Shown here: positions 1 through 53,040 of the stretch, piece after piece | Layout: each line of letters starts with the position of its first letter | Numbering within the stretch: the stretch's first letter is position 1 | From: Candidatus Yonathbacteria bacterium | GTDB lineage: Bacteria; Patescibacteriota; Minisyncoccia; Phycocordibacterales; JACNGX01 | NCBI GenBank assembly: GCA_013334825.1 | Contig: JAAXWR010000003.1 | Coordinates: 101,167-165,166, forward strand | Length of the DNA: 64,000 bases | Direction of reading: 5' to 3' | Notes under the pieces: model-generated | What the model saw: the letters and a program-made list of their open reading frames with translations, nothing else | Databases searched by the model: none | Told to the model about the DNA's origin: nothing | Position numbers and translations under genes: made by a program

Positions 1-80
1 GTCCGCCCCGCCCTTTCTTAAGAAAGGGCGGGGCGGACCCGTGCGCTCCGCCGTAGTGGAGACGTCGCGGGAGAACTATA
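1..80 (+). repeat. Palindrome-plus-motif element, copy A. A 38-bp perfect palindrome gtccgccccgccctttcttaagaaagggcggggcggac is followed by a small hairpin and the conserved tail gagacgtcgcgggaRaact.
   Basis: The palindrome is seen directly. Near-identical copies lie at 44985-45060, and a palindrome-less copy at about 53048-53095 shares the tail motif. The small hairpin stems differ between copies (ctcc/ggag, ctctg/cagag, tccg/cgga). Confidence 0.7.
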
Positions 81-110
81 AACTAAGAATTCGTCTTATC
101 CCCACCCCCA

Positions 111-1364
111 TTGACTGCACAGATGAGCGGTGTATACTCGTACATACGCCTGACATGCCTGTACGAAAGCTCCCCGAGCAAGAAGTCAATGAACCGACCA
201 AAAACGGCCTCGTTGAGCCATCTTGTGAAGGAACCCGCACGTAAGACACTCCCACATCGGCTTATCTTACCCTCTATACAAGAGCCCGAAAGCGTTATTA
301 TTTTGCTTGATCGGGTGAACATATTGTATGCACGTCGTTCCGCTACCATAAAAGCGATTGCGGTAGCATGCTCTCTCTCAGTCCCCTTTTTGACACATGC
401 GGGCGTATTTTCCTTTGTTTCTGGACTTTTTGGACAGCCGGTCATGGCCGAAGAGACGATGTCTGAGGACAATTCTCAGACAATGGACCTGCTGTCTCCT
501 GCGATTCACACTGACCCCAACCCCGCAAAAGGTGGTGGCGATATCACTATTGTAGAAAACGTTGCTCTTTTGCCCGATTCAGGACCTTCGGGAACTCTTG
601 CTGACGTTGAGGAATCAAAACCCAAGTCAGATCATATCAGTTTGTATGTCGTTCGCCCCGGAGATTCATTGTCACAAATTGCGGATATGTTTGGCGTAAC
701 TCCCGATACCGTGAGATGGGCAAATGATATGAAAAAAGGTACATCTATTCAGCCAGGGCAAACACTTGTCATTCTCCCTATTTCGGGTGTCCGTCACATT
801 GTTGGCAAAGGAGAGACCCTTGCATCTATTGCCAAGAAATATGGCGGTGATGCGGATGAAATTATGGATTTCAATGGCATGTCAGGAGCTGTGCTTGCTG
901 TGGGTGATACGGTTATTATTCCAGATGGAGAAATTGCTATTCCCGCGCAGACAAAATCTTCCGTTTCTTCAACGAAAAAGAACACAACGTCTTCTGGTAA
1001 GACAAATACCGCATCTTCTTCTGGATATTATATGCGTCCAGTGAGTGGTGGGTATCGTTCCCAAGGTCTTCATGGATATAATGCCATCGATATTGCGGCA
1101 CCGATTGGTACTCCTGTTATGGCATCTGCCTCAGGAACGGTCATTATTGCAAAAGGTTCAGGATGGAATGGAGGATACGGAAGTTATATTGTTATCAAAC
1201 ATGAAAATGGTACACAAACACTGTACGCGCATGAAAGTTCTGTTATTGTGTCCGTCGGACAATCTGTTGTAAAGGGACAAGTTATCGGGTATATCGGTTC
1301 AACAGGAAAGTCTACGGGACCCCATTTGCACTTCGAAGTCCGTGGCGCGGTGAATCCTTTTTAG
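111..1364 (+). CDS. LysM-repeat / M23 (LytM) family peptidoglycan endopeptidase with an N-terminal membrane anchor.
   Basis: Two LysM-like repeats (YVVRPGDSLSQIAD..., HIVGKGETLASIAKKYG...) precede a C-terminal M23 signature (GYNAIDIAAP...GYGSYIVIKHENG...GSTGKSTGPHLHFEV). The ORF as called starts at TTG 111 and reads through repeat element A. A more plausible start is TTG at about 324, downstream of a gggtga RBS-like run. Confidence 0.85.
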   Translation: MTAQMSGVYSYIRLTCLYESSPSKKSMNRPKTASLSHLVKEPARKTLPHRLILPSIQEPESVIILLDRVNILYARRSATIKAIAVACSLSVPFLTHAGVFSFVSGLFGQPVMAEETMSEDNSQTMDLLSPAIHTDPNPAKGGGDITIVENVALLPDSGPSGTLADVEESKPKSDHISLYVVRPGDSLSQIADMFGVTPDTVRWANDMKKGTSIQPGQTLVILPISGVRHIVGKGETLASIAKKYGGDADEIMDFNGMSGAVLAVGDTVIIPDGEIAIPAQTKSSVSSTKKNTTSSGKTNTASSSGYYMRPVSGGYRSQGLHGYNAIDIAAPIGTPVMASASGTVIIAKGSGWNGGYGSYIVIKHENGTQTLYAHESSVIVSVGQSVVKGQVIGYIGSTGKSTGPHLHFEVRGAVNPF

Positions 1365-4900: not shown

Positions 4901-5827
4901 ATGTTTTGTGTAGTGTGGGTCAGGAAGTTTTTCTATAAACACTATAAAAATAAAAAGATGAGAATTATATCATACAAGGACGCATGCGAGGGAAAGATTC
5001 CCTCGCGCACTGATTTCAGGTATGTTCGAAATCAGGTAAGTACTGCTCTTCAAAAATCCGACTGTATCCTTTGTGCGCTTGAATTTGGTTCAGTCGTTTC
5101 AGTAGAAGTTGAGTACACCAGCGACTATGACGTGCTTGTTATTTGTGAAGACAGATGTTTTTGTAACGGAAAAGTGGCAGAAGTGCTCGGGCCTCTTTCC
5201 GAGCTTGCATATTATCGACATGTTCCCCTTGCATGGATAGTGACTCCCTTGTCTGTTGCAAAGGATGCAACAAAACACACCTGGGAGGAATCTTTTCTGA
5301 AGAGCGTACTGGGTACAAACGAAAAAAAGGGAATCATCAAGGGTGATCCGCATAGTCTTATAGATATGCGTGAAGAAGGAGATATGCGCGTATACGTGCG
5401 AGAGTATATTCGCAGAAAAATGAGCAAATTCAGGAATGCAATTCCTGAACTGTATGCAAATGAGTCATTTCTTTCTGAAGAGAGAAAGCGCACTCTTTTA
5501 GGAGATGTGTTTTCATTTCCTATCCATGTTGCACGGAAGATTCTTCAGTGTCATGGATGGAAATTCCCTCAAGGTGACGGAAAGAATGCTGTATATGAGC
5601 AGTATAAAATGCGTTTTGAAGGACACTCGGTGCTGAATCTTTTCTGTACTCTCATGGAATTACGAGGAATGTATACTCTTGCTGTTGAGAATATGGATTG
5701 GTTCGGTGAAAGTCCGTTGACACAAAAAGTATATGTTGAGATGACGCAACTTACACCCAAGATTCTTCTTCTTGCTCATGATTTTGGAGAAGCGAATCTT
5801 GATATACTGTCACAAATTACAGAGTAA
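4901..5827 (+). CDS. Nucleotidyltransferase-domain protein (pol-beta superfamily, KNTase/MNT-like) with a possible HEPN-like C-terminus.
   Basis: GS-x10-DYD signature (FGSVVSVEVEYTSDYDVLVI) and a C-terminal R-x5-H motif (ARKILQCHG). The true start is probably M at about 4958 (MRIISYK). Confidence 0.5.
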   Translation: MFCVVWVRKFFYKHYKNKKMRIISYKDACEGKIPSRTDFRYVRNQVSTALQKSDCILCALEFGSVVSVEVEYTSDYDVLVICEDRCFCNGKVAEVLGPLSELAYYRHVPLAWIVTPLSVAKDATKHTWEESFLKSVLGTNEKKGIIKGDPHSLIDMREEGDMRVYVREYIRRKMSKFRNAIPELYANESFLSEERKRTLLGDVFSFPIHVARKILQCHGWKFPQGDGKNAVYEQYKMRFEGHSVLNLFCTLMELRGMYTLAVENMDWFGESPLTQKVYVEMTQLTPKILLLAHDFGEANLDILSQITE

Positions 5828-9082: not shown

Positions 9083-11302
9083 TTATCGTCCTCCAAACCG
9101 TCGGCGATGTTCTTCGGGGGATAGTCCGCCATAGCGTGGACCGTTACCGCTCGCATGGTCATGTCCTTGTGATGGGCCAGAAGGTTGCACACCTTTTCGT
9201 GTTGCATAATCAGGGTCCGCTTGTTTCAGTGACAGACGGAGTTTATTCGGATCATCAGACTCTTTAACGACGACCGGAATCATATCACCCTCTTTCACGA
9301 CATCAGCGACATTCGCGATACGAAACGGTGCGAGTTCTGATACGTGCACCAATCCTTCCGTGAATGCATTGATTTTTACCAATGCGCCAAATTCAAAGAG
9401 TTTAATCACTGTTCCCTCAAAACGTTCACCAGGAAGATATTCGCGTGTCATGTCGTGGATGATCTGTTGTGCTTTTTCTGCTGTGCCGTTCTTACCAGTG
9501 ATAAAGATCGTGCCATCATCTTCGATGTCGATTTCTTCTACACCACTATCGAGTCGTATTTTCTTTATTGTTTTCCCTGATGGTCCAATAACTTGACCAA
9601 TCTGGTCTTCAAGAACACGCATGCGAATGATACTTGGTGCGGATGCCGGGAGTGTCGCTCGTGGCGCGGGAATTGCATCCGTAATGACCTTGAGAATATG
9701 AAGCCTCGCGTCTTTTGCGCGCGCGAGTGCTTCTGTGAGTATTGCAACAGGGATACCGTCAACCTTTACGTCCATTTGAATCGCGGTAACACCCTCTGTG
9801 GTTCCTGCAACTTTAAAGTCCATATCACCATGATGATCTTCAGGACCTTGAATATCGGTGAGCACTTTATAACGAGACATATCGGACGGGTCAGACATAA
9901 GTCCAATGGCGATGCCCGCGACAGGTCTTTTAATGGGGACACCTGCATCCATGAGCGCAAGCGTTGAACCACAAACTGATGCCATGGAAGTAGAACCATT
10001 GGATGCGAGAGATTCAGAGACGATGCGAATCGTATATGGGAATGTATCTGTGTCGGGAATGACATACGAAAGTGCTTTTTCCGCGAGCGCACCATGACCA
10101 ATCATGCGACGGTTGGTACCACCCATGCGTCCTGTTTCTCCGCTTGAATAGGGAGGAAAATTGTAATGATGCATGAAACGTTTGCTCCCCTCTTGCTCTT
10201 CCATGGTATCTACAAGTTGCGCGTCTTTGGGACCACCCAAGGTAAGCGCGGAAAGCACATGTGTTCCGCCACGATAAAAGATACCTGTGCCGTGAATGGA
10301 AGGAGCAAATCCTCCTGCTTGTGCAAAAAGTGGACGCACTTCATCGAATGCACGGTTATCGGGACGCTTATTATCTTCAAGAGCACCGCGATGAAGTTCT
10401 TTGTCCGTTGCGTCTTCATAGTATGCGTCCGCGAGCGTACGAGGTTCATCGGGGAGATGTTCAGCAACAACTGCCGTCCACTCATCTTTGAGTGTATAAA
10501 TACCATCCTTCCCTGCCTTGCCGGTAAAGACTGCGAGAGAAAGTTTTGGCGCAATACGTTCAGCAAAAAGTGTTTTTCCTGCTTCGGATAATGAGGCAAG
10601 AGAAAGAACTGCTTTTTCTTTGCCGATTGTTGCAATGATATCTGTTTGAAATGCTTGAAGATGTTCGATTTCTTTTGTCGCGCGCGCGAGTGAGGAAGTG
10701 ACAATGTCTTCATGCGCCTCTGCTCCTCCCGCTTCGATCATATTGATATTGCCGTTCTTGCCACATACCGTAAGCTCAAGAAGCGCGCCTGTACGATCGG
10801 TATAGGACGGGTTGACGAGCGTGTCACTCTCGACATTTTTTTGAACAAGACGTACGGCAGATACGGGACCATGCCACGGAATACGTGAAGTCGCGAGAGC
10901 AAGTGACGCGGCGTTTACCGCAAGAATGTCGGGGTCAATGTCACCAAGTGAAAGTGTTGTGATGACAACTTGTACTTCATTGCGGATACGTTGATCAAAA
11001 AGTGGGCGAATGGTGCGATCCACGATACGTCCCGAGAGAATGGCATTGTCAGAAGGTTTTCCTTCACGACGCATGAAACGGCTTCCCAAGATTTCTCCTG
11101 CCGCGTAAAAACGTTCTTCATAATCAACGGTGAGTGGAAAAAAATCACCATCGCGTACGTTACTGGACATGACCGCGGTCGCAAGGACGACAGTGTCGCC
11201 ATAACGCAAGATAACAGAACCATCAGTTTGTTCGGCAAGATCAGAGAACTCAGCAATAAGTTTTTTTCCACCGATCTCTGTTTCAAATGTACGTGTGTGC
11301 AT
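9083..11302 (-). CDS. pnp: Polynucleotide phosphorylase (PNPase).
   Basis: Two RNase PH domains plus KH and S1 domains. Classic N-terminus (TFETEIGGKKL...) and a 739-aa length. Confidence 0.97.
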   Translation of the reverse strand: MHTRTFETEIGGKKLIAEFSDLAEQTDGSVILRYGDTVVLATAVMSSNVRDGDFFPLTVDYEERFYAAGEILGSRFMRREGKPSDNAILSGRIVDRTIRPLFDQRIRNEVQVVITTLSLGDIDPDILAVNAASLALATSRIPWHGPVSAVRLVQKNVESDTLVNPSYTDRTGALLELTVCGKNGNINMIEAGGAEAHEDIVTSSLARATKEIEHLQAFQTDIIATIGKEKAVLSLASLSEAGKTLFAERIAPKLSLAVFTGKAGKDGIYTLKDEWTAVVAEHLPDEPRTLADAYYEDATDKELHRGALEDNKRPDNRAFDEVRPLFAQAGGFAPSIHGTGIFYRGGTHVLSALTLGGPKDAQLVDTMEEQEGSKRFMHHYNFPPYSSGETGRMGGTNRRMIGHGALAEKALSYVIPDTDTFPYTIRIVSESLASNGSTSMASVCGSTLALMDAGVPIKRPVAGIAIGLMSDPSDMSRYKVLTDIQGPEDHHGDMDFKVAGTTEGVTAIQMDVKVDGIPVAILTEALARAKDARLHILKVITDAIPAPRATLPASAPSIIRMRVLEDQIGQVIGPSGKTIKKIRLDSGVEEIDIEDDGTIFITGKNGTAEKAQQIIHDMTREYLPGERFEGTVIKLFEFGALVKINAFTEGLVHVSELAPFRIANVADVVKEGDMIPVVVKESDDPNKLRLSLKQADPDYATRKGVQPSGPSQGHDHASGNGPRYGGLSPEEHRRRFGGR

Positions 11303-14097: not shown

Positions 14098-14194
14098 GGA
14101 AAGAGCATACCATAGACGGACGATATGTGCAAGCGCTTGAATAAGCTTATAGGGTATAGGAAATAGGTGAGAAGTGAGAGGGGTGAACACTCGA

Positions 14195-14400
14195 ATCAAG
14201 CGTGCCCTGTACCCTACGTGGTGCAGGGAATCACGAAGCACGAATCAAGAATTAAGGGTTACGAAGTACGAACTTATACGAACATACGAAACGGGACGGG
14301 GATTAAGAAATATGAACATATGAATAACGAATATGTACGCCTGCCCCGCACCCTACGTGGCGTGCTGTGCATCCTACGTGGTGCATGGTGCTGGGGAATA
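14195..14400 (+). repeat. Cluster of REP-like palindromes (core ccctgtaccctacgtggtgcaggg) with low-complexity ACGAA/GAAAT repeats extending to about 14520.
   Basis: Imperfect palindromes with a G-T wobble on the + strand at about 14205-14230 and about 14340-14395. Related copies lie at 44955-44980 and 52580-52650. Confidence 0.6.
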
Positions 14401-14540
14401 TACGAAATGGGACGTGAATTATGAAATATGAAATTAGAAATATGAAGAAGAAAACTATAAAATAAAAAAGAAAAGAAATCATATGCGCATGTTCGTATAA
14501 GTTCGTACTTCGTAACCAATCTTCATGTTACAATACTCTT

Positions 14541-15458
14541 ATGTCGCACAATATTGACGAACAGGTTACGCGCTTTCTTGAGTATATAGAGATTGAGCGT
14601 GGACGGAGTTTAAAAACGGTTGCCAACTATGACCGCTATCTTCGTCGCTTTGTCGCATTCTCTGGCATTTCTTCTCCCGCAGATATCACTGATGAAACAG
14701 TGCGTCGTTTTCGTTTATGGCTTAATAAACAAGAAGTGCATGATGGTGGCACGATGAAAAAGAAAACACAAAATTACTATCTCATTGCGCTCCGAAGTTT
14801 TCTCAAGTACTTGGCGAAACAAGGAATTAGTTCTCTTGCGCCTGAACGTATTGAACTTGCGTCTGTTGGGGCACGGGACCTTGATCTTATTTCATCGCAA
14901 GAACTTGAGCGATTGCTCACTGCTCCTGATGGAGATTCTCTCACTGCACTCCGTGACCGAGCGATACTCGAACTTTTTTTCTCGACAGGACTGCGCGTAT
15001 CGGAACTCGCATCTCTTTCGCGAGATATTGATATTGAAAAAGACGAATTTTCCGTGCGTGGTAAAGGTGAAAAAATCCGTGTCGTTTTCGTCTCCCCTTC
15101 TGCCCGTAGTGCGGTAAAGCAATATCTCAAAGCGCGCAAAGATTTGGATGATGCGCTGTTTGTCCAACTTGGTCCACGTGCAAAAACAGCTGAAGAAATG
15201 CGTCTTACATCACGGAGTATTGAGCGCATTGTGAAGCACTACGCTATCAAAGCAGGTATTTCACGTAAGGTTACCCCGCACATTATTCGGCACTCTTTCG
15301 CGACAGATCTTCTTCGTAATGGAGCTGACCTGCGGAGTGTGCAAGCAATGCTTGGTCACGCCAACATTCAAACAACACAAGTATATACGCACGTGACTGA
15401 CAAACAACTGCGCGAGATACATAAAGCATTTCACGGAACTGCGCGGAAGAAACGCTGA
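14541..15458 (+). CDS. Tyrosine site-specific recombinase of the XerC/XerD family.
   Basis: C-terminal catalytic box HIIRHSFATDLLRNGADLRSVQAMLGHANIQTTQVYTHV and an N-terminal SAM-like domain. Confidence 0.9.
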   Translation: MSHNIDEQVTRFLEYIEIERGRSLKTVANYDRYLRRFVAFSGISSPADITDETVRRFRLWLNKQEVHDGGTMKKKTQNYYLIALRSFLKYLAKQGISSLAPERIELASVGARDLDLISSQELERLLTAPDGDSLTALRDRAILELFFSTGLRVSELASLSRDIDIEKDEFSVRGKGEKIRVVFVSPSARSAVKQYLKARKDLDDALFVQLGPRAKTAEEMRLTSRSIERIVKHYAIKAGISRKVTPHIIRHSFATDLLRNGADLRSVQAMLGHANIQTTQVYTHVTDKQLREIHKAFHGTARKKR

Positions 15459-20962: not shown

Positions 20963-20984
20963 CGCGAAGCAAGCAGTTGCTTCG
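20963..20984 (+). repeat. Hairpin gcgaagcaa-gcag-ttgcttcgc. It is the inverted-orientation counterpart of the hairpin gcgatgcaa-ctgc-ttgcatcgc at about 22945 and 33946, with a compensatory A-T to T-A swap.
   Basis: Direct sequence comparison. It lies adjacent to an antisense tRNA-Arg 3'-end fragment (tgtaggggcaccc). Confidence 0.6.
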
Positions 20985-20994
20985 CTGTAGGGGC

Positions 20995-21096
20995 ACCCAG
21001 CCCTACTTTCATGAGAGAGTCAGAATGTAAAATAATTTAAATACACAGAATAACCATAGGCAATCACACATACATACTATATGAAAATAGAGCTGG
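20995..21096 (-). mobile_element. MITE-like element, copy a. Terminal inverted repeats cccagccctactttcat / atgaaaatagagctggg flank an AT-rich core of about 68 bp.
   Basis: It shares its terminal inverted repeats with copies at 21123-21225, 28784-28882, 22836-22934 and 33836-33935. It is flanked by tRNA-Arg 3'-end fragments in opposite orientations (gtaggggcaccc ... gggtgcccctaccagg). Confidence 0.65.
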
Positions 21097-21122
21097 GTGC
21101 CCCTACCAGGAACACTCACTGC

Positions 21123-21225
21123 TCCCCAGCCCTAATTTCATCACGGGCAATCGTACATGTAACAACCGTATACACTGGCAAAAAATTATACATGTATATG
21201 CGTAATACATGAAAGTAGAGCTGGG
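21123..21225 (+). mobile_element. MITE-like element, copy b. It is the near-identical inverted copy of 28784-28882.
   Basis: The reverse complement matches 28784-28882 apart from a few substitutions. Terminal inverted repeats are cccagccctaatttcat / atgaaagtagagctggg. Confidence 0.7.
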
Positions 21226-21320
21226 TGTGCTCGCGAAACCCACGGTTTCGCGGACATCCTCCACGGGGAACCAGCAGGTTCCCCGACCCCCTCCGCGTTC
21301 GAATCCTGGTAGGGGCACAG
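21225..21320 (+). ncRNA. Structured 'X' element, copy 1: hairpin 1 (gcgaaac-ccacg-gtttcgc), a linker (catcctccac), hairpin 2 (ggggaacc-agca-ggttcccc), gaccccctc, then a pseudo T-arm (cgcgttcgaatcc) and a tRNA-Arg acceptor 3' fragment (tggtaggggcacag).
   Basis: Three copies exist: here, about 28693-28786 on the minus strand, and about 28536-28618 on the minus strand. Hairpin 1 stems covary (gcgaaac/gtttcgc versus cttatggaa/ttccataag) while the loop ccCNCgg is kept. It does not fold as a canonical tRNA. Confidence 0.45.
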
Positions 21321-21399
21321 TTTCCACAGCGCTTGCACTGTGACACAAAACACCACTTCTTTTTAAAGTGGTGTTTTGTGAAACTGTGCCCCTACCAGG
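21298..21399 (+). terminator. Inverted repeat gaatcctggtaggggcacagtttc ... gaaactgtgcccctaccaggattc (about 24-26 bp arms made of the tRNA-Arg 3' end) enclosing an inner hairpin caaaacaccact-tctttttaa-agtggtgttttg. This is a bidirectional terminator-like structure.
   Basis: Seen directly. The right arm is the 3' end of the minus-strand tRNA-Arg gene. Confidence 0.55.
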
Positions 21400-21458
21400 A
21401 TTCGAACCCAGAACGACGGTTCCGAAGACCGGCGTGATATCCATTTCACCATAGGGGC
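21387..21458 (-). tRNA. tRNA-Arg (anticodon TCG), no encoded CCA.
   Basis: Cloverleaf traced by hand: acceptor gccccta/taggggc, D stem gtga/tcac, anticodon loop cttcgga, T loop ttcgaat. There is one mismatch at the top of the anticodon stem. Confidence 0.8.
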
Positions 21459-22553: not shown

Positions 22554-22627
22554 GCGGGTATAGTTTAGTGGTAGAACGCGACCTTGCCATGGTTGAGACG
22601 GGAGTTCGATTCTCCCTACCCGCACCA
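22554..22627 (+). tRNA. tRNA-Gly (anticodon GCC) with an encoded CCA.
   Basis: gcgggtatagtttagtggtagaac...ttgccat...gggagttcgattctccctacccgcacca. The full cloverleaf was traced. Confidence 0.95.
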
Positions 22628-22629
22628 TA

Positions 22630-22668
22630 CAGCAAAAAGGAGACGGTTTGTCCGTCTCCTTTTTGCTG
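22630..22668 (+). terminator. Rho-independent terminator after tRNA-Gly(GCC).
   Basis: cagcaaaaaggagacggtttgtccgtctcctttttgctg hairpin with a U tract. Confidence 0.7.
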
Positions 22669-22811
22669 TATTATGGTGCGAGGTAGAGAAAGTGCATTTA
22701 TGCACTTTCATGGAGAATCGAAGCGCCGGAATATATCCTGCGCTTGCGCAGGATTTGAGGCGCCGTCCAAGAGTACTTAGCGAAATACAAGCTTTAGCGC
22801 AGTATTTCGGT

Positions 22812-23092
22812 TAGTAACTCTGGGACGATTCTCCCCCAGCCCTACTTTCATAAAAAACGCATGTACAGTACGTGCGTTTTTTATGTGATTATCAGATATA
22901 TATTTTGGGGGTGTTTCATGAAAGTAGGGCTGGGTGCGGGTAGAGCGATGCAACTGCTTGCATCGCGCTTGCCTCGCCGAAACCTGTCTTTTGGAAAGGT
23001 GAAGGCGGGTGGAGAATCGAACCGAGCACCACTTTTGCAATGGCAAAAGTGGTGCTCGGGAAGCGAATTAGTAACCGCGGGACGATTCTCCC
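22812..23092 (+). mobile_element. Composite tRNA-Gly-associated element of about 235 bp bounded by about 25-bp direct repeats (ttagtaacNNNgggacgattctccc at about 22812-22836 and about 23068-23092). It contains a MITE-like hairpin (22836-22934), an anti-tRNA-Gly acceptor (tgcgggtagag), the hairpin gcgatgcaa-ctgc-ttgcatcgc, an antisense T-arm fragment (ggcgggtggagaatcgaacc), and a 13-bp-stem hairpin (gagcaccactttt...aaaagtggtgctc).
   Basis: Direct comparison with the second copy, which is fused directly to the 3' end of tRNA-Gly(TCC) at 33836-34020. The direct repeats resemble a degenerate tRNA-Gly T-arm (gggacgattctccc versus gggagttcgattctccc). Confidence 0.6.
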
Positions 23093-23223
23093 ACAAAAAC
23101 GAACCGACCTTATGGGGCGGCTTTCGCTTTGCGCTGTGTGGGTAGAGCGATGCAACCGAAACGGGCGAACAATCGAACTTGATTTATCTTAAAAAAGATA
23201 TATACTCTGCATATATCCATACG

Positions 23224-23271
23224 AAAAGGGGTCCGAAAGGTGTTGGTGCCTAAGGACCCCTTTTCTTTTTT
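23224..23271 (-). terminator. Bidirectional terminator hairpin aaggggtcc...ggacccctt with flanking T tracts, downstream of the NYN gene.
   Basis: Seen directly. Confidence 0.6.
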
Positions 23272-26214: not shown

Positions 26215-26976
26215 ATGGTCAAAGATACATTGAAACAAATTGGTCTTTCTGACAAAGAAACAGAGGTGTATTTGTGTGTACTAGAACACACCACCATCAC
26301 CCCCACTCTCATATCAAAAAAGACGGGGATAAGTCGTCCGACGGTATATGCGGCAGGAAAAGCGTTGCAAAATAAGGGTTTTATTGCCGAAGAACCGTCT
26401 TCTGCGGGGATACGTTTTATCGCTCTCCCCCCGCGGGTTATCGTTTCGGACTTAGAAAAACGTCAAGATGCACTGGATATGCAATTTGCCCTTGCGGGAT
26501 CTTTGATTGAAGAATTGAACCTTCTCCCTAAATCACAGGGATACTCAATACCAAAAGTGCAATTTATTGATGACGTACACTTTCTTGAATATGCGTTTAA
26601 AAAGTCAGATGAATGGGATAAAAGTGCTCTTTCACGAGACGCTACATGGTGGGGCATTCAGGACAGTACTCTTGTGGAAAATATGAATGATTGGCTTGTA
26701 TGGTATTGGAAAAGAGCGGATAAGAAGATTCGGACAAAAATCGTGACAAATGAACAAGAAGAAGGATATTCATTTAAAGGACAAGAAAATCCACGCCGAG
26801 AAATGCGCTATTGGCGCGCGGGTGAACATATTCGTGCAACAAACTTGGTTATTGGAGACTATATCCTCATCGTCAATACCTATAAACGGCCATACTCAAT
26901 TTTCGAAATATATGATGCGGTAACCGCAGAAGGTTTACGACAAGTGTTCAAAGGCATCTGGAATGATTTGGGTTAA
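26215..26976 (+). CDS. TrmB-family transcriptional regulator (N-terminal winged HTH).
   Basis: IGLSDKETEVYLCVLEH...ISKKTGISRPTVYAAGKALQNKGFI matches the TrmB HTH. The C-terminal domain is divergent. Confidence 0.75.
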   Translation: MVKDTLKQIGLSDKETEVYLCVLEHTTITPTLISKKTGISRPTVYAAGKALQNKGFIAEEPSSAGIRFIALPPRVIVSDLEKRQDALDMQFALAGSLIEELNLLPKSQGYSIPKVQFIDDVHFLEYAFKKSDEWDKSALSRDATWWGIQDSTLVENMNDWLVWYWKRADKKIRTKIVTNEQEEGYSFKGQENPRREMRYWRAGEHIRATNLVIGDYILIVNTYKRPYSIFEIYDAVTAEGLRQVFKGIWNDLG

Positions 26977-27423
26977 TATTCATGTATAAAGGACATGGGA
27001 ATTGTGGAAACATTGTTGAGATATAAGGATATTTTTGTAGAAAACTGTGGATAAGTTAGTGGATATGTGTATAAAAGACATGAAAAAATATACGTCCTTT
27101 AGAAAAAAGACGGAAAGAGACAAGGTGTTCTACGTTGTTATATAAGGATATTTGACCGTTTTAAGATTATTATGGTGTTGTTTCGGTAACTTTTTGTAAA
27201 TAGTTTCACGTGAAACGTATTTTATGTAGTGTGAGATGTTTCATATGAAACTAAATGCGGACACTACGTAGAAAATCGCGGAGTAAACGCGGAAGATCGC
27301 GGAACGAAACCAGAAAGTCGCAGGTCTTGCGCAAAAACTAGATGAAGTTCTGATTCTCAAGAGTGCAGCTATTCTTGGAACATAAAAACTATTGGAGATC
27401 GATTTTGTTTGCCAATGTTCAGT

Positions 27424-27531
27424 CTGTCATTCTGGCCTTGAAAAAGAATTCACAGAGAAATGTCCCTTTTCTAGATTCCGGGTCACCTACTTCGCTAAGC
27501 TCCGCAGGTTGTAAAGTCCGGAATGACAAGC
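27424..27531 (+). mobile_element. Short element of about 108 bp with 12-bp terminal inverted repeats (tgtcattctgg ... ccggaatgacaag).
   Basis: A second copy with the same terminal inverted repeats (tgtcattccggg ... cccagaatgacag) lies at about 28128-28208. The two copies flank yraN. Confidence 0.5.
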
Positions 27532-27638
27532 TTGTTTCATCGTTTATCGTTCATGTGTTATTCTTACTTCGTGATCCTTGATTCTCTTTCGTCCCATAAT
27601 TCTTAATTCATTATTCATAATTCACGTCTCAGTTACAC

Positions 27639-28055
27639 ATGAAAACAACAAAACGTGCCTTTGGCGATATTGGCGAGGATCTCGCGGAAAAGTTTCTCAT
27701 GAAACACGGTTTTGAGGTTGTGGACCGAAACTATAACAAAAAATGGGGAGAATTGGATATTGTTGCACGTGAAACATTGAAAAAGGGCTTTAAATATAGA
27801 TTTATTGAAGTAAAAAGTGTTTCATGTGAAAACATCGAGATGATTTCACATGAAACACTGCAAAAAGACACGAGACCAGAAGAACAAGTTCATGTATGGA
27901 AACAAAAGCGTCTAGGAAAGGCGATACAAACATATATTGAAGAAAAAAAGATTTCACATGAAACACCGTGGCAGTTTGATATTGTTGCTGTTTTTATTGA
28001 TAAAACTAATAAAAAAGCGAAAATACGGTTTGTAGAGGGGGTAGTGTTAGGTTAG
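27639..28055 (+). CDS. yraN: YraN-family (UPF0102) PD-(D/E)xK endonuclease with an in-frame repeat insertion of about 25 aa.
   Basis: An AFGDIGEDLAEKFL...GELDIVA...FIEVK core, with an inserted segment ...SCENIEMISHETLQKD...KISHETPWQ. The insertion is encoded by three TTTCACATGAAAC palindromes at about 27820-27966. Confidence 0.8.
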   Translation: MKTTKRAFGDIGEDLAEKFLMKHGFEVVDRNYNKKWGELDIVARETLKKGFKYRFIEVKSVSCENIEMISHETLQKDTRPEEQVHVWKQKRLGKAIQTYIEEKKISHETPWQFDIVAVFIDKTNKKAKIRFVEGVVLG

Positions 28056-28446: not shown

Positions 28447-28519
28447 CGGGGCATAGTGTAACGGCTAACATGCCTGCTTTGGGAGCAGGTGACTCCCGGT
28501 TCGAATCCGGGTGCCCCGA
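28447..28519 (+). tRNA. tRNA-Pro (anticodon TGG), no encoded CCA.
   Basis: cggggcatagtgtaacggctaac...cctgctttgggagcagg...ggttcgaatccgggtgccccga. Cloverleaf traced. Confidence 0.95.
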
Positions 28520-28535
28520 ACGCAGTGAGGAGTAC

Positions 28536-28618
28536 TCGGATTCGAACCGAGGAGGGGGTCGGGGAACCTGCGGTTCCCCGTGTCGGAAGTCTGCGAAACC
28601 GAGGGTTTCGCAAGCGCA
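28536..28618 (-). ncRNA. Structured 'X' element, copy 3 (hairpin gcgaaac-cctcg-gtttcgc, hairpin ggggaacc-gca-ggttcccc, T-arm-like ctcggttcgaatccgag).
   Basis: It shares its architecture with 21225-21320. It lies immediately downstream of tRNA-Pro on the opposite strand. Confidence 0.45.
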
Positions 28619-28692
28619 GGGAAGGTGAGCGCATCCCGCGAACCTTCCCGAGCAGTAAGGTTCCGGGTGCCCCGAAAGAGCGGAGCGATTTC

Positions 28693-28786
28693 TGGACACC
28701 CGGATTCGAACGCGAAGGGGGTCGGGGAAACTGTAGTTTTCCCGTGGAGGAGGCTTATGGAACCGTGGGTTCCATAAGCGCACCCA
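28693..28786 (-). ncRNA. Structured 'X' element, copy 2 (hairpin cttatggaa-cccacgg-ttccataag, hairpin ggggaaaactacagttttcccc, pseudo T-arm cgcgttcgaatccgggtgtcc).
   Basis: Same order of elements as copy 1. Hairpin 1 stem differs completely while the loop and linker are conserved, which is covariation. Confidence 0.45.
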
Positions 28787-28882
28787 GCTCTACTTTCATG
28801 TATTACGCATATACACGTATAATTTTTTGCCAGTGTATACGGTTGTTATGTGTACGATTGCCCGTGATGAAAGTAGGGCTGG
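28784..28882 (-). mobile_element. MITE-like element, copy c (inverted copy of 21123-21225). It is followed by gagcagtgagtatt and a third copy of the tRNA-Pro 3' end (ccgggtgccccga at about 28898-28910).
   Basis: Near-identity of the reverse complement to copy b. The tRNA-Pro 3'-terminal 13 nt recur at 28506-28519, 28665-28677 and 28898-28910. A direct repeat gcagtgag(g)agta(c)t(c)gg lies at about 28522-28540 and about 28887-28900. Confidence 0.65.
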
Positions 28883-29052
28883 GGAGCAGTGAGTATTCCG
28901 GGTGCCCCGAAAAAACATGTTAGGAAATGCCGAATTTTATATTGCTTTACGGAACGAGGATTATCTTCACCGCCACTCCATCAAAAAACAATTACGGAAT
29001 AACCGTTTTTGAATAAAGATACTATATTCTGAACATGTAATTTTTTTATCTT

Positions 29053-33594: not shown

Positions 33595-33764
33595 TTTCCT
33601 CTCCAAAACCCGCCTCTGGCGGGTTTTGTGTTTTTTTGATAGGATAGGGAAGCGAGACGAGAAGTTAGAAATTAGGAATTAGAAATATGAAGAGAATATG
33701 TGATTTGGTCGTTGCGTAGTCCGTTCTACGAACTACGAACCATGAACTAAGAACTAGTAACAAC

Positions 33765-33837
33765 GCGGGTATAGTTTAGTGGTAGAACCTCTGCCTTCCA
33801 AGCAGATGACGGGAGTTCGATTCTCCCTACCCGCACC
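33765..33837 (+). tRNA. tRNA-Gly (anticodon TCC). CC is encoded but the terminal A is not.
   Basis: gcgggtatagtttagtggtagaac...ctgccttccaagcag...gggagttcgattctccctacccgcacc. Same body as tRNA-Gly(GCC) with a different anticodon arm. Confidence 0.95.
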
Positions 33838-34020
33838 CAGCCCTACTTTCATAAAAAACGCATGTACAGTACGTGCGTTTTTTATGTGATTATCAGATAT
33901 ATATTTTGGGGGTGTTTCATGAAAGTAGGGCTGGGTGCGGGTAGAGCGATGCAACTGCTTGCATCGCGCTTGCCTCGCCGAAACCTGTCTTTGAGACAGG
34001 TGAAGGCGGGTGGAGAATCA
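33836..34020 (+). mobile_element. Second copy of the tRNA-Gly-associated element, fused directly to the tRNA 3' end. It is truncated after ggcgggtggagaatc and is followed by a minus-strand terminator.
   Basis: It is more than 98% identical to 22836-23017. The inverted-repeat arms are ctacccgcacccagccctactttcat / atgaaagtagggctgggtgcgggtag (26 bp including the tRNA acceptor). Confidence 0.65.
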
Positions 34021-34057
34021 AATAAAAAACCGGCGCCCATAAGGGCGCCGTGACATT

Positions 34058-45116: not shown

Positions 45117-45189
45117 GTCCCTATAGTCTAATGGATAGAATGCGACCCTCCGAAGGTCGAGATCCAGGTTCGATTCCTGGTAGGGGCAC
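45117..45189 (+). tRNA. tRNA-Arg (anticodon CCG), no clean CCA.
   Basis: gtccctatagtctaatggatagaatgcgaccctccgaaggtcgagatccaggttcgattcctggtaggggcacc. Promoter-like TTGCAC, a 17-bp spacer, TATACT lies upstream. Confidence 0.9.
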
Positions 45190-45272
45190 CCCATTGAGTT
45201 TTAAGTTTTCAGTTGCTAGTTGCCAGTTTCAAGTATACACAAAAAAGCCGCGCGAAGCGCGGCATTGGAGAT

Positions 45273-45479
45273 TTAGAGCTTTATAAAAGCTCTCACCCAC
45301 CATAGAATGGTGAGCATTTGAGGCACCAAACCAAATGGGGTCTTTAAAAAATAAACTCCCATCACAATGATGATTGTTATCAACGTTGTGGCGATGAAAC
45401 ATAAAACATTTTTCATAGCAGTTTTGTCTGAGTTTTTGGATGAACTATCTTGACCATAGTATAGCAGATTGTCAATCAT
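45273..45479 (-). CDS. Small hypothetical membrane protein.
   Basis: 68-aa ORF with one TM helix and a terminator hairpin at about 45241-45264. Confidence 0.35.
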   Translation of the reverse strand: MIDNLLYYGQDSSSKNSDKTAMKNVLCFIATTLITIIIVMGVYFLKTPFGLVPQMLTILWWVRAFIKL

Positions 45480-45580
45480 ATGTCAAGTAGTTTCGTCTAA
45501 TGTATCTTTTATATACAAGGTATAAATAGAAAGTGTGGGATAGGTTTGACACAATATTTTCCACCTGATACACTTACTGT

Positions 45581-46363
45581 ATGAAAAAAGAACTCTCCAC
45601 ACTTCAAAAACAGTTACAAATCATAGGATTATCAGATAATGAAGTATCAGCATATATGGCCCTTCTTGAGTTGGGTAAGGGCACGGTCTCTCAAATATCA
45701 AGAAAAGCACAGTTAAACCGTACCACAGGGTATGATGTGCTCGACAGATTGGTTGCAAAAGAATTGGTCAGCATCTCCGGAAAGGAGCCAAAACAGGAAT
45801 ATCTTGCCGAGTCTCCAGATAGACTGGAATCGTTGATTGTGAATGAATTAGAAAAAAAACAAAAGGAACTTGATCAGGCACGAAAGATTATTCCGGAATT
45901 GAAATCAATGCATAATGTCGCCGGTCGCCCCCAGATACGCTTTTATGAAGGGACATCAGGACTTAAAGAAGTATATGAAGATACGCTTTCCTCACATGAA
46001 GCTATTCGAGCGTATGCATCAGTGGATGATGTGCACGCAGCGCTTCCGGGATATTTTCCTCTCTATTACAAACGAAGAACCGAAAAGGGTATACCCATTC
46101 GGGCAATTTTTACTGACAATCCGGAAGGGCGAGAACTTTCAAAACACGATGCGGAAGAAATACGCGAATCCGCATTTGTCCCCGCAGAAACATATGGGTT
46201 TCACCCCGAGATAAACATCTACGACAACAAAGTGATGATCGCCTCATGGCGTGAACAGTTGGGCATCATCATCGAGAGTGTTGAAATCGCCGATGCGATG
46301 AAAAAGATATATGAGCTGGCATGGGCAGAGGCGAAACGTCTCGGTGGTGAACATGCAAAGTAA
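45581..46363 (+). CDS. TrmB-family transcriptional regulator.
   Basis: N-terminal IGLSDNEVSAYMALLELGKGTVSQISRKAQLNRTTGYDVLDRLVAKELV matches the TrmB wHTH. Confidence 0.75.
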   Translation: MKKELSTLQKQLQIIGLSDNEVSAYMALLELGKGTVSQISRKAQLNRTTGYDVLDRLVAKELVSISGKEPKQEYLAESPDRLESLIVNELEKKQKELDQARKIIPELKSMHNVAGRPQIRFYEGTSGLKEVYEDTLSSHEAIRAYASVDDVHAALPGYFPLYYKRRTEKGIPIRAIFTDNPEGRELSKHDAEEIRESAFVPAETYGFHPEINIYDNKVMIASWREQLGIIIESVEIADAMKKIYELAWAEAKRLGGEHAK

Positions 46364-46414
46364 CCATACGAATTTTTATAAAACAAAAAACGGACACGAA
46401 TGTCCGTTTGGATT

Positions 46415-46957
46415 TTAACATGCCTGCATCGGGATTATGACTTCCATGTTGTAGGGGATGACCATCATGTCATCGTCCATTTTCGGTGATCCTACCCACG
46501 GGTCTTTCTGGTCCAAGTTTATTTGAACGATGGGAACACGATTATTCTGTGCTTCTCCAATAACGATGTACGCAGGAGCTTTTTCCATGTCCATCAGTTC
46601 TTCCACGGACACCGACGGTTTGTCGTTTTCGGGTGCGAGTCGTACGATGGTCCTCAGAACTGCATCTCGAAGATGTATCTTTTTCATCTGCGGCTGTTTG
46701 GGGCGTATCTCACCCGGGTAAGAGATGATCCGTCTCGTGTCTTTTCTTTTGAGAATACCACCTTTGGCATCGAGAGGGAGGACATATGTCTCGTCTGTAC
46801 TTGCTTTTCCTATGATGAGATATAGATTAGGTGCATCTGCTGATGCCTCTATGAAAATGGAAGAAGTATCGGCAAAGCGAAACATTGTTCCAGGTTTTTT
46901 GTCACCAAGGGTTGCTTTCTGCTCGTCCCGTACGGTCTCTCTGAGAAGAAGTGTCAT
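46415..46957 (-). CDS. Hypothetical protein.
   Basis: 180-aa ORF driven by a consensus promoter copy at about 46985-47030. Confidence 0.55.
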   Translation of the reverse strand: MTLLLRETVRDEQKATLGDKKPGTMFRFADTSSIFIEASADAPNLYLIIGKASTDETYVLPLDAKGGILKRKDTRRIISYPGEIRPKQPQMKKIHLRDAVLRTIVRLAPENDKPSVSVEELMDMEKAPAYIVIGEAQNNRVPIVQINLDQKDPWVGSPKMDDDMMVIPYNMEVIIPMQAC

Positions 46958-46984
46958 TGCTTTTGAGTGCTAAGTTGTATGAAA

Positions 46985-47030
46985 AATAAATGTTACCGCT
47001 TGTCATCATACGGGTATTAGGAGAAATGTC
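46985..47030 (-). promoter_or_regulatory. Consensus sigma-70 promoter (minus strand: TTGACA-tttctcctaatacccg-TATGAT) with the conserved leader gacaagcggtaacat. This is copy 1.
   Basis: A near-identical promoter and leader (TTGACA-caacctctaatacccg-TATGAT-gacaaatagtaacat) lies at about 47845-47885, upstream of the next minus-strand gene. Confidence 0.6.
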
Positions 47031-47082
47031 AAGAAGAACAAAAAACGACATTTCCTTTTCAAGAGATGTCGTTAATGAGAAA

Positions 47083-47820
47083 TTAAGTTAGGATTTTTTC
47101 TGCTAAAACTTTTATTTTTTCACTGCTCAGAATGTCAAATCCTTTAACATTCTTCTCTATGAGAGAAGTTGCTACTAAAAAATCAGTAACTCCTATCTCT
47201 AAAAAAGTCTTAACATTTTCTTCTGTGATACCACTTGCAATACCAAGTCTTTGATCAATACTCAGATAAGTTTTTATTTCCTTTATCTTTTCGTAATCAG
47301 CAGGTTTGCCAGTAGCTATTCCTGAAGTTGTAGGTATGACATAGTTAAACTTAGGAATATTATCACAGAGTCTTTTAAGGTCATCGCCAGAAGCAGATGA
47401 ATGCCTTGAATATTTAAATGCTAATCCAGTGAAAAAATCAGTTCGAGACACTTCAGCAACAAGAGGAATTATTTTCGCAAAAGAACCATCTGATTGAATC
47501 ATATTAAAATCTTTTTCTTTAATAGCATCAATCAAATCTGATTCCATTGTTTCAAACCTTTTTAAAAAATTAACCCCAACTGGAAAATTGGGAAAAAGTT
47601 TTTTTATCTCGGAATAATAAAAGAATAAATCTTCTGACGTTGCTCTTTTTGAGTGTCCATTTGATTCATTTTCATAGTCAGGGATTAAAAATATACCACT
47701 TGCCCCTGCTTTAAAAATCTTTGTTGCCTCTTCAATCACATGTTTGGAAGCTTCGTTGTCATTTGTTTTATGCTGAACATGAATGACAACAAAAAAGCGA
47801 GGAAATAATTTTTTATTCAC
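47083..47820 (-). CDS. Phosphate-binding TIM-barrel protein (BtpA/SgcQ or PcrB/GGGP-synthase-like).
   Basis: C-terminal LGIASGITEENVKTFLEIGVTDFLVATS resembles the Gly-rich phosphate-binding segment of BtpA/PcrB. It has a GTG start and a local GC of about 32%. Confidence 0.45.
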   Translation of the reverse strand: MNKKLFPRFFVVIHVQHKTNDNEASKHVIEEATKIFKAGASGIFLIPDYENESNGHSKRATSEDLFFYYSEIKKLFPNFPVGVNFLKRFETMESDLIDAIKEKDFNMIQSDGSFAKIIPLVAEVSRTDFFTGLAFKYSRHSSASGDDLKRLCDNIPKFNYVIPTTSGIATGKPADYEKIKEIKTYLSIDQRLGIASGITEENVKTFLEIGVTDFLVATSLIEKNVKGFDILSSEKIKVLAEKILT

Positions 47821-47844
47821 GGTCTTTAAATTTAAAATATTTGA

Positions 47845-52549: not shown

Positions 52550-53040
52550 GTTAGAGGAGATAGGGACAGATATTCGAATCAAGCGTGCCCTGCCCCCTAC
52601 ATGGCGTGCTGTGCATCCCACGTGGTGCACAGTGCAGGGAATCACGAAGCACGAATCAAGAAGAAAAACGATAGACGATGAAATAAGAAATATGAAGTTA
52701 GAAATATGGGGTTACGAAGTACGAATGAGTATGAACATACGAAACGGGACGGGAATTAAGAATACAAGACGAGAATTAAGAATAAGGAATTAAGAATCAA
52801 GAATACGGACGGACTGGAAATGAGGAGTAGGAATATGAAGAGGAAACTATAAAAAATTAAAGGTTAAAAAGAAAAAACTATAGACAATGAAATAAGAAAT
52901 ATGAAGACGAAAACTATAAACGAGAGACAATGAAATAAGAAAATAGAAATAAGGAATATGGGAAGAGAAAACTATAAACGATAAAAAAGAAGTCGTATTC
53001 GTATATTGTACACATTCGTTATTCGTAATCTTCGTAAGTG
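52550..53040 (+). repeat. Intergenic repeat cluster of about 490 bp: REP-like palindromes (gtgccctgccccctacatggcgtgctgtgcatcccacgtggtgcacagtgcaggg) followed by degenerate GAAATA/AAGAAT/ACTATAAAC low-complexity repeats.
   Basis: It is related to the 14195-14520 cluster (shared cgaatcaagcgtgccctg...gggaatcacgaagcacgaatcaagaa). Confidence 0.65.

Follow-up and report, generated by a model that had tools for sequence, protein, structure and literature searches.

Hairpin-module arrays containing copies of tRNA 3' ends downstream of tRNA genes in a Candidatus Yonathbacteria genome

A 235-bp block downstream of tRNA-Gly(GCC), initially annotated as one element associated with this tRNA gene, proved to be the second of three homologous tandem units. 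We tentatively regard it, with a confidence somewhat short of even, as unit 2 of a tandem array of non-coding, recombination-active DNA modules that form a lineage-wide family. The window, i.e. the whole stretch of 64,000 nucleotides analysed here, contains five tRNA genes according to ARAGORN and Rfam (Arg-TCG, Gly-GCC, Pro-TGG, Gly-TCC and Arg-CCG), four of which are followed by arrays, tRNA-Arg(CCG) being bare. Such arrays are found throughout the Ca. Yonathbacteria lineage and probably also in other Patescibacteria. Their units share a common plan: an apical hairpin, an inverted copy of the tRNA 3' end, body hairpins (either hp and J, or S), and a conserved adapter joined to a direct copy of the tRNA 3' end that starts in the T-loop. 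The features of the window are as follows, with the basis of the assignment in brackets.

20964-21458, minus strand: tRNA-Arg(TCG) array (inverted and direct repeats, M-end and H motif matches, fragment map)
21386-21458, minus strand: tRNA-Arg(TCG) (ARAGORN/Rfam)
22554-22627, plus strand: tRNA-Gly(GCC), anchor of the array (ARAGORN/Rfam)
22628-22835, plus strand: unit 1, made of terminator hairpin, anti-acceptor, H', anti-T, hp, J and sense T-arm copy
22628-22670, plus strand: apical hairpin of unit 1, bidirectional intrinsic-terminator type (inverted repeat, 36-nt arms at 81%)
22674-22722, plus strand: antisense tRNA 3' end of unit 1 (sequence and fragment map)
22674-22688, plus strand: anti-(acceptor+CCA) of unit 1
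22689-22708, plus strand: hairpin H', between anti-acceptor and anti-T of unit 1
22709-22722, plus strand: anti-T-stem/loop of unit 1
22723-22763, plus strand: 'hp' hairpin of unit 1 (fold; homologous slot in related loci L130 and L120)
22764-22827, plus strand: hairpin J, 25 bp, its 3' arm being the left 17 nt of direct repeat 1 (RNAalifold, six homologues)
22811-22835, plus strand: direct repeat 1, i.e. J 3' arm and sense T-arm 3' copy CGATTCTCCC (C56-C65), acceptor part deleted
22836-23092, plus strand: unit 2, the block of the initial annotation, made of M, anti-acceptor, H, x, anti-T, K, orphan J 3' arm and sense T-arm copy
22835-22934, no strand assigned: element M of unit 2, 100 bp, with 17-bp inverted ends CCCAGCCCTACTTTCAT and ATGAAAGTAGGGCTGGG and a terminator-like hairpin inside
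22935-23022, plus strand: antisense tRNA 3' end of unit 2 (sequence, fragment map, H covariation)
22935-22945, plus strand: anti-acceptor of unit 2
22945-22966, plus strand: hairpin H of unit 2
22967-23007, plus strand: insert x of unit 2
23008-23022, plus strand: anti-T of unit 2
23021-23059, no strand assigned: hairpin K, 17-bp perfect palindrome (second occurrence behind tRNA-Glu in L122)
23068-23092, plus strand: direct repeat 2, i.e. orphan J 3' arm and sense T-arm 3' copy
23093-23178, plus strand: unit 3, truncated (direct repeat analysis in the window, comparison with L130 and L133)
28447-28519, plus strand: tRNA-Pro(TGG) (ARAGORN/Rfam)
28447-28910, plus strand: tRNA-Pro array with two S-type units (repeat comparison and fragment map)
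33765-33837, plus strand: tRNA-Gly(TCC) (ARAGORN/Rfam)
33765-34022, plus strand: tRNA-Gly(TCC) fused to M (33836-33935), then anti-acceptor, H, x and anti-T (33936-34022) (98% match to unit 2)
45117-45190, strand not given: tRNA-Arg(CCG) (ARAGORN/Rfam)
20996-21097, 21125-21225, 22835-22934, 28783-28883 and 33836-33935: the five copies of element M (paired 17-bp ends)

The stem of the apical hairpin in unit 1 reaches into the 3' end of the tRNA gene and into its inverted copy (DNA fold of 22597-22700: z = -12.2). More generally, the long palindrome around an apical hairpin consists of the tRNA 3' end, or the copy belonging to the previous unit, and the next inverted copy. This inverted copy is often split by hairpin H, whose position is exactly the T-stem/acceptor boundary of the antisense copy. 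The DNA fold of M in unit 2 has a z-score of -9.5, and the truncated unit 3 comprises a degenerate terminator hairpin, an anti-acceptor (23136-23146), half of H and an anti-T-loop (23167-23178), after which the sequence becomes unique. As a whole, the region downstream of tRNA-Gly(GCC) folds as a chain of hairpins (z = -11.8 vs. shuffles). Between the array and the NYN gene, a promoter-like TTGATT/TATACT pair is followed about 20 nt further on by a strong terminator hairpin (23179-23270, kept in L130 at 10530-10610); this could be a tiny transcript or merely the terminator of the NYN gene.

The inverted repeat arms of the tRNA-Gly(TCC) array are 38 nt long (fold z = -10.4). Read in the direction of the tRNA, the Arg(TCG) array consists of the tRNA, a terminator, an antisense 3' end (21292-21324), module S, a first M (21125-21225), an adapter with a sense 3' end (21098-21124), a second M (20996-21097), an anti-acceptor (20987-20995) and hairpin H (20964-20985). 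In the Pro array, a 31-nt hairpin fills the slot of unit 1 that M (28783-28883) fills in unit 2, and both units end in GAGCAGTGAGTrT followed by TCCGGGTGCCCCGA. A 206-nt unit is common to the Arg and Pro loci at 88%, with the differences confined to the tRNA-specific ends.

The hairpins of the arrays covary strongly. Among six homologues of hairpin J aligned with RNAalifold, 13 of the 25 pairs changed on both sides, with one G-U; for hairpin H, five of nine pairs changed on both sides and none on one side alone. The covariation of H and J is strictly Watson-Crick: G-U is nearly absent from the 34 covarying pairs, which is what DNA palindromes would show.

Concerning the 25-bp direct repeats that bound the block, TTAGTAACnnnGGGACGATTCTCCC occurs at 22811-22835 and 23068-23092 with 22 of 25 positions identical (the three n positions differ) and no match expected in shuffles, so that they are real and chance similarity can be set aside. 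They lie 257 bp apart from start to start, with 232 bp in between, where no plausible gene was found; the neighbouring ORFs are NYN and unknowns. The repeats had been described as a degenerate tRNA-Gly T-arm fused to tRNA-upstream sequence. The first half of this description holds, since they contain CGATTCTCCC, which equals tRNA positions C56-C65 and is the kind of tRNA-3' duplication that characterises tRNA-targeting integrative elements. The second half is not borne out: the left half, TTAGTAACnnnGGGAC, is the 3' arm of the conserved 25-bp hairpin J, and a tRNA-upstream origin is not demonstrable. The earlier remark stems from a 7-nt resemblance, TAGTAAC, which is found 3 nt upstream of tRNA-Gly(TCC) (33745-33764) and also 3 nt before GGGAC in the direct repeats; chance and common origin are both possible. 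Also, direct repeat 1 is devoid of TACCCGCA, which its counterpart in the relative L120 retains.

Several other observations of the initial annotation were confirmed. The copy of the block fused to tRNA-Gly(TCC) extends over 187 nt at 98% (33836-34022 vs. 22835-23021) and begins directly 3' of the discriminator base. The hairpin GCGAWGCAA-loop-TTGCWTCGC occurs at 20964, 22945 and 33946 (three sites vs. 0.01 expected); read along its own tRNA, the Arg-locus copy has an unchanged CTGC loop and the compensatory A-T to T-A swap. At all three loci, the hairpin directly follows a complement of the acceptor 3' strand, 9 to 11 nt long.

Three relatives were identified through protein look-ups: L130 is a syntenic second Yonathbacteria genome, L133 a closer contig and L136 a 20-kb contig across tRNA-Arg(CCG). 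About a dozen related loci were available, several of them mutually orthologous, hence few independent events. Behind tRNA-Gly(GCC), L130 has one copy of the direct repeat and has nonetheless kept H, x and anti-T; two separate pieces of the window are absent there, namely a 109-bp piece made of M and the anti-acceptor, and the 154 bp of 23023-23176, which are flanked by AATCGAAC. In L133, hairpin J is 97.6% identical to that of the window, and the position of M in the window is taken there by a terminator hairpin of 46 bp; unit 3 of the window likewise has a terminator hairpin in this slot. None of the relatives examined offered a clean empty site for the 235-bp block. The two separate indels of L130 and the terminator in the M slot of L133 point to a composite with several histories, not to one insertion.

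The model of the initial annotation, in which the block is one small integrative element inserted in a tRNA-Gly 3' copy with 25 bp duplicated as attL/attR, thus appears largely refuted by the L130 and L133 sequences, and we consider it very unlikely. It draws support from the tRNA origin of the repeats, from the recurrence of the block at the other Gly locus and from the presence or absence of other units between tRNA-3' repeats. In addition to L130 and L133, however, the Gly-TCC copy shares just the 187 nt and has no second repeat, and the left 17 nt of the repeat are the hairpin arm of every J-type unit. What stands of the att-type reading is the bounding of units by tRNA-3' copies, between which units were gained or lost among relatives; the single insertion does not stand, and no integrase was found in or beside the block.

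Such gains and losses are seen at three other tRNA genes. At tRNA-Gly(TCC), L120 carries a 218-bp unit between 19-bp repeats cgattctccctacccgcac, while the window lacks this unit and has M fused to the tRNA instead. At the Pro locus, there is one unit in L119 vs. two in the window. As for tRNA-Arg(CCG), bare in the window, it is followed in L136 by an insertion composed of M, a 2.7-kb island of six small genes, an inverted second M (113 bp at 99%), an S-type unit and a 14-bp tRNA-3' copy, after which comes the native trailer. The island encodes an HTH regulator, a TPR protein, a DUF6804 protein and unknowns, and no recombinase was found in it. Recombination between tRNA-3' copies seems evident from these sequence comparisons. 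In L130 and L121, T-arm copies without the acceptor core were found. The region 3' of tRNA-Arg(CCG) is hypervariable (45190-47840 vs. 2600-7560 of L136, reverse complement): the window has a TrmB-like gene and two unknowns, and L136 has the M-bounded island followed by different genes.

An artefact of the metagenome-assembled genome has next to no probability. Arrays do break assemblies, as seen in many short contigs ending in arrays and in 100 consecutive N in the L130 array behind tRNA-Gly(TCC) (461-560), a gap attributed to near-identical tandem units. The architecture recurs, however, in independent assemblies from NCBI (a MAG), JGI, ENA and Logan, which agree on it with identical or near-identical sequences.

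The map of pieces copied from tRNAs covers about 50 fragments behind 15 tRNAs. The first tRNA position in the sense copies is C56 (Gly, Val, Glu, Ile), G57 (Asn) or T60 (Arg, Pro), and antisense copies extend to G53; the 5' two-thirds of the tRNAs were the source of no mapped downstream fragment except three far-off 9-mers. The adapter TTAGTAACnnnGGGA|C adjoins Gly, Glu and Val sequence and precedes the C56-start copies, and GAGCAGTGAGTrT adjoins Pro and Arg sequence and precedes the T60-start copies. The anti-acceptor follows the species-specific acceptor of tRNA-Arg (tgcccctac in the window vs. cgcccccgc in L130), and some direct repeats, 22 to 30 bp long, run beyond the tRNA end into the trailer. 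On the upstream side of tRNA-Ser(CGA) in L122, a duplication at 94.5% (5427-5515 and 5564-5654) covers the first ~20 nt of the tRNA and the promoter region, which indicates that tRNA 5' fragments are copied too, on that side; the hairpins that follow it are also present downstream of tRNA-Asn in L126.

Of the 20 tRNAs in related loci, 13 have an antisense 3' copy no more than 400 nt away (11 of 18 when duplicate loci are left out) vs. one of ten control tRNAs, that one belonging to a Patescibacterium. Arrays lie behind at least seven tRNA species (Gly, Arg, Pro, Val, Glu, Ser and Ile), with shared adapters and hairpins and locus-specific tRNA segments. The unit plan was also encountered behind Gly-TCC in L120 and L130, Val in L121, and Glu and Ser in L122; the Pro and Arg arrays have body S in place of hp and J, and a tRNA-Ile array is present in the unrelated Patescibacterium L072. 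There (40-130, minus strand), ATGAAAATAGAGCTGGG and the anti-T-arm of tRNA-Ile are fused, the CTGGG of the former also serving as T-stem complement, and a 29-bp direct repeat of the tRNA-Ile end and trailer comes next. Judging by this junction, the M end may itself descend from a tRNA 3' end.

The 17-bp motif ATGAAAGTAGGGCTGGG has ten matches in the window vs. 0.1 expected, all in inverted pairs 100 to 102 bp apart, and all five resulting M copies adjoin tRNA 3' ends or copies of them. M ranges from 100 to 103 bp, folds as a long hairpin and has conserved ends around interiors of at least seven unrelated groups. It is thus small, non-coding, multi-copy and bounded by inverted ends, as MITEs are. 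It replaces older hairpins in four kinds of slot (terminator, hp, J tip and S hairpin), in close relatives of the window only; it is absent from the more distant L130, and is therefore seen as a recent coloniser. The T·G mispairs of its ends lie mostly on the tRNA-sense strand. No direct target-site duplication was found at any copy, the flanks being unrelated or mutually inverted (e.g. ctacccgca|M|tgcgggtag).

Ten loci came from a metagenome search with paired M ends, and most of them contain segments that match the window at 79-97% identity; further copies of M, in 20 entries, are spread across them, several of these loci being duplicates of each other. Searching 596 Gb of genome contigs with the bare 17-mer gave 118 loci and, on re-scan, no genuine paired-end copy; almost all of these matches are taken as chance since a 17-mer is too short for 596 Gb, L072 being the relevant exception. 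The window, the related loci and the viral collection yielded no autonomous insertion sequence with M ends, and in the viral collection paired M ends, J arms and the S module had no match. Promoters in M or in the units show no excess over shuffles (five found vs. 5.0 expected). A small peptide starting at the M-end ATG was rejected, the outward ATG being identical at both ends with no consistent ribosome-binding site or frame.

The genes around the arrays are housekeeping ones (CCA-adding enzyme, PNPase, RNase Y, NusA, trigger factor and type IV pilus genes). The NYN protein beside the array behind tRNA-Gly(GCC) and its counterpart in a Candidatus Yonathbacteria MAG are 100% identical. The sole recombinase in view is an Xer-type gene at 14541-15458, 8 kb from the block and syntenic in L130. 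It scores 128.7 bits on the integron-integrase model vs. a cut-off of 265, Xer models fit better, and it looks like a housekeeping gene. A search of the window and of the 2.7-kb L136 island yielded no transposase, HUH enzyme or element-borne integrase, and no Y1_Tnp match was obtained among the 40 window ORFs scanned. Readings of the arrays as bridge-RNA/IS110, IS200/605, IS91, group II intron or casposon were rejected, with no matching protein and an unfit anatomy.

Other repeats and paralogues were noted in the window. A second, intergenic repeat family lies beside the Xer-type gene (14160-14520) and beside nusA (52560-53010); in this family, low-complexity runs of acgaa/aagaat/gaaatatgaa words come after short palindromes gtgccctg..acgtggtgcaggg, and pieces of it are present in L121, L122, L126 and L127. 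Around a small UPF0102-like gene upstream of tRNA-Pro (27190-27970), the palindrome GTTTCAyrTGAAAC occurs at least five times (27194, 27691, 27753, 27842 and 27950) and may form an operator array. Two pairs of paralogues are also present: 2'-5' RNA-ligase-like proteins side by side (1532-2131 and 2427-2954), and TrmB-type regulators, each beside a tRNA locus (26215-26976 and 45581-46363).

Within the limits of our searches, the arrays match no known RNA family, phage or viral sequence, or paper. In Rfam, tRNAs alone pass and the permissive-threshold matches are generic hairpins; in a phage BLAST search, tRNA-Arg was the sole match; and limited literature searches found no publication on the M end sequences, nor one specific to tRNA-linked MITEs or palindromes in the candidate phyla radiation.

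Several known systems offer partial parallels. Tyrosine integrases of tRNA-targeting integrative elements use the T-loop sublocation, and the CIMEs of Streptococcus are integrase-less, att-flanked remnants accreted in tandem. The arrays share with these a directly repeated tRNA 3' end whose start lies in the T-loop and which in some cases enters the trailer, the tandem units behind an intact tRNA, and the presence or absence of units between relatives. They differ in that their units are 85-260 bp long, non-coding and without integrase, that each unit holds an inverted tRNA-3' copy, and that one adapter set serves at least five tRNA species. The E. coli rtT repeats are tyrT-distal 178-bp repeats, each with the last 19 nt of tRNA-Tyr, and here too, units repeated in tandem follow a tRNA gene and close with a tRNA-3' copy; they are not known to have inverted copies, modules shared across tRNA species or a nested inverted-end element.

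Folded single-strand recombination sites are known from integron attC and from the hairpin attP of the CTX phage, which is used by the host Xer. The arrays resemble these sites in their imperfect palindromes, conserved outer box, variable apical part, asymmetric feature on one arm (H) and occurrence as site arrays, with an Xer-type enzyme as the sole recombinase in view. Compared by eye with the attC core consensus, GTTRRRY/RYYYAAC, the T-loop box GTTCGAT/ATCGAAC matches at six of seven positions. Unlike in integrons, there is no IntI integrase, the units of the window arrays hold no ORF cassettes and the box polarity differs; the likeness is a pure analogy.

M was compared with bacterial MITEs and with REPINs, in which REP sequences are paired in inverted orientation and mobilised by RAYT (PMC3116915, PMC10969869). 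The similarities are a length of about 100 bp, conserved inverted ends, a poorly conserved spacer of about 67 bp, a long hairpin, and an extragenic, multi-copy distribution; a GTAG inside the end sequence, as in REPINs, is also present in ATGAAAGTAGGGCTGGG. In contrast to REPINs and MITEs, no RAYT or transposase was found among the window ORFs, the 17-bp end is not self-complementary, no target is duplicated, and all copies seen lie in hairpin slots of tRNA-derived arrays, with flanks that are often inverted tRNA-end copies. Casposons target tRNA 3' ends (PMC4046053). Like them, the insertion that follows tRNA-Arg(CCG) in L136 combines long inverted ends with a direct tRNA-3' copy, here of 14 bp; unlike casposons (PMC4046053), it has no Cas1 or polymerase, the direct copy is not next to the inverted end, and the flanks at the ends are inverted, not direct. 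Judged on sequence features, the arrays thus resemble att-site accretion and M resembles REPINs or MITEs, but the defining features (integrase, target duplication, RAYT) were not found.

How the arrays arise can be read in several ways. In the reading that we prefer, the modules would act and spread as DNA, not as RNA. They would pass from one tRNA locus to another through recombination within the conserved T-loop sequence GTTCGAwTC, and their units would multiply or shrink by recombination between direct copies, probably through folded single-strand hairpins as intermediates and with an enzyme acting in trans; M would be a MITE/REPIN-like hairpin element colonising hairpin tips. Recombination in the T-loop is indicated by the fixed T-loop junctions, the adapters common to many tRNAs and the repeats running into the trailer. 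Against this reading, no candidate enzyme other than the apparently housekeeping Xer-type gene is in view, M has no definable target-site duplication, no circular or excised form was seen, and the junctions vary (G53, C56, T60, 65|66), which does not define a single crossover point; the match to the local tRNA and the strong hairpin covariation also fit a functional RNA, and the related loci represent few events. A process that needs no dedicated enzyme is rather unlikely: replication template switching at hairpins would lengthen the palindromes, from the bidirectional terminator outwards into the 3' end of the tRNA, until halted by the T-arm hairpin, unequal homologous recombination would alter the number of units, and M would be an ordinary MITE landing there. 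The palindromes are indeed near-perfect and centred on terminator hairpins, their arms covary as if copying each other, deletions lie at palindrome centres (direct repeat 1 and the T-arm copies of L130 and L121), and truncated units and an assembly gap occur inside arrays. Template switching may account for part or all of the pattern; it does not readily explain why the H, J, S and K modules and the adapters recur behind at least five unrelated tRNA species, joined at fixed T-loop positions with 3-9 nt of shared sequence, nor why direct repeats of 22-30 bp continue into the trailer as att sites do.

A reading of the units as RNA genes, whose structured products would be complementary to the 3' half of the adjacent tRNA (acting e.g. 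as an anti-tRNA regulator, a sponge or a processing signal), is distinctly improbable. The folding of the region far beyond shuffles, the covarying hairpins, the antisense segment that tracks the local tRNA including its species-specific changes, and the strand bias of the T·G mispairs in M would all suit such genes. Yet, in the direction of the tRNA, a hairpin of the intrinsic-terminator type precedes every antisense segment, promoters are no more frequent than expected, copy number, truncations and module content differ between close relatives, and no Rfam family matches. It is the Watson-Crick-only stems, the antisense segments behind terminators, the absence of a promoter excess and the fast change in content that favour DNA modules over RNA genes. 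The idea that the units are tRNA-like or represent split tRNAs was discarded, as 5' T-stem and acceptor partners are missing on both strands.

A broader proposal, which we consider quite unlikely, is that Patescibacteria may carry a hairpin-recognising recombination platform at their tRNA genes. Folded palindromes of a tRNA 3' end and its inverted copy would be the sites, in the manner of integron attC or the CTX-phage attP hairpin, with the T-loop box at the base, H as asymmetric mark and M or a terminator at the tip, and a trans-acting, possibly host Xer-type recombinase would stack, swap and move modules and cargo between tRNA genes. The six-gene, 2.7-kb island of L136, bounded by inverted M copies at tRNA-Arg(CCG), is a candidate cargo.

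The genomes of Patescibacteria are very small and leave little space for repeats, and yet four of the five tRNA genes of the window and most tRNAs of the related loci trail several hundred bases of hairpin modules that track the local tRNA. In practice, contig breaks are accounted for by the arrays, which can also lead predictors of tRNAs and att sites astray. Should the modules be selfish DNA, they would represent an undescribed way to parasitise tRNA genes through the T-loop, the one sequence common to all tRNAs, and the arrays, besides breaking metagenome assemblies, would also mark hot spots of cargo-gene exchange. If they are folded recombination sites, they would constitute a cassette system in a phylum whose mobile-element biology is almost unknown.
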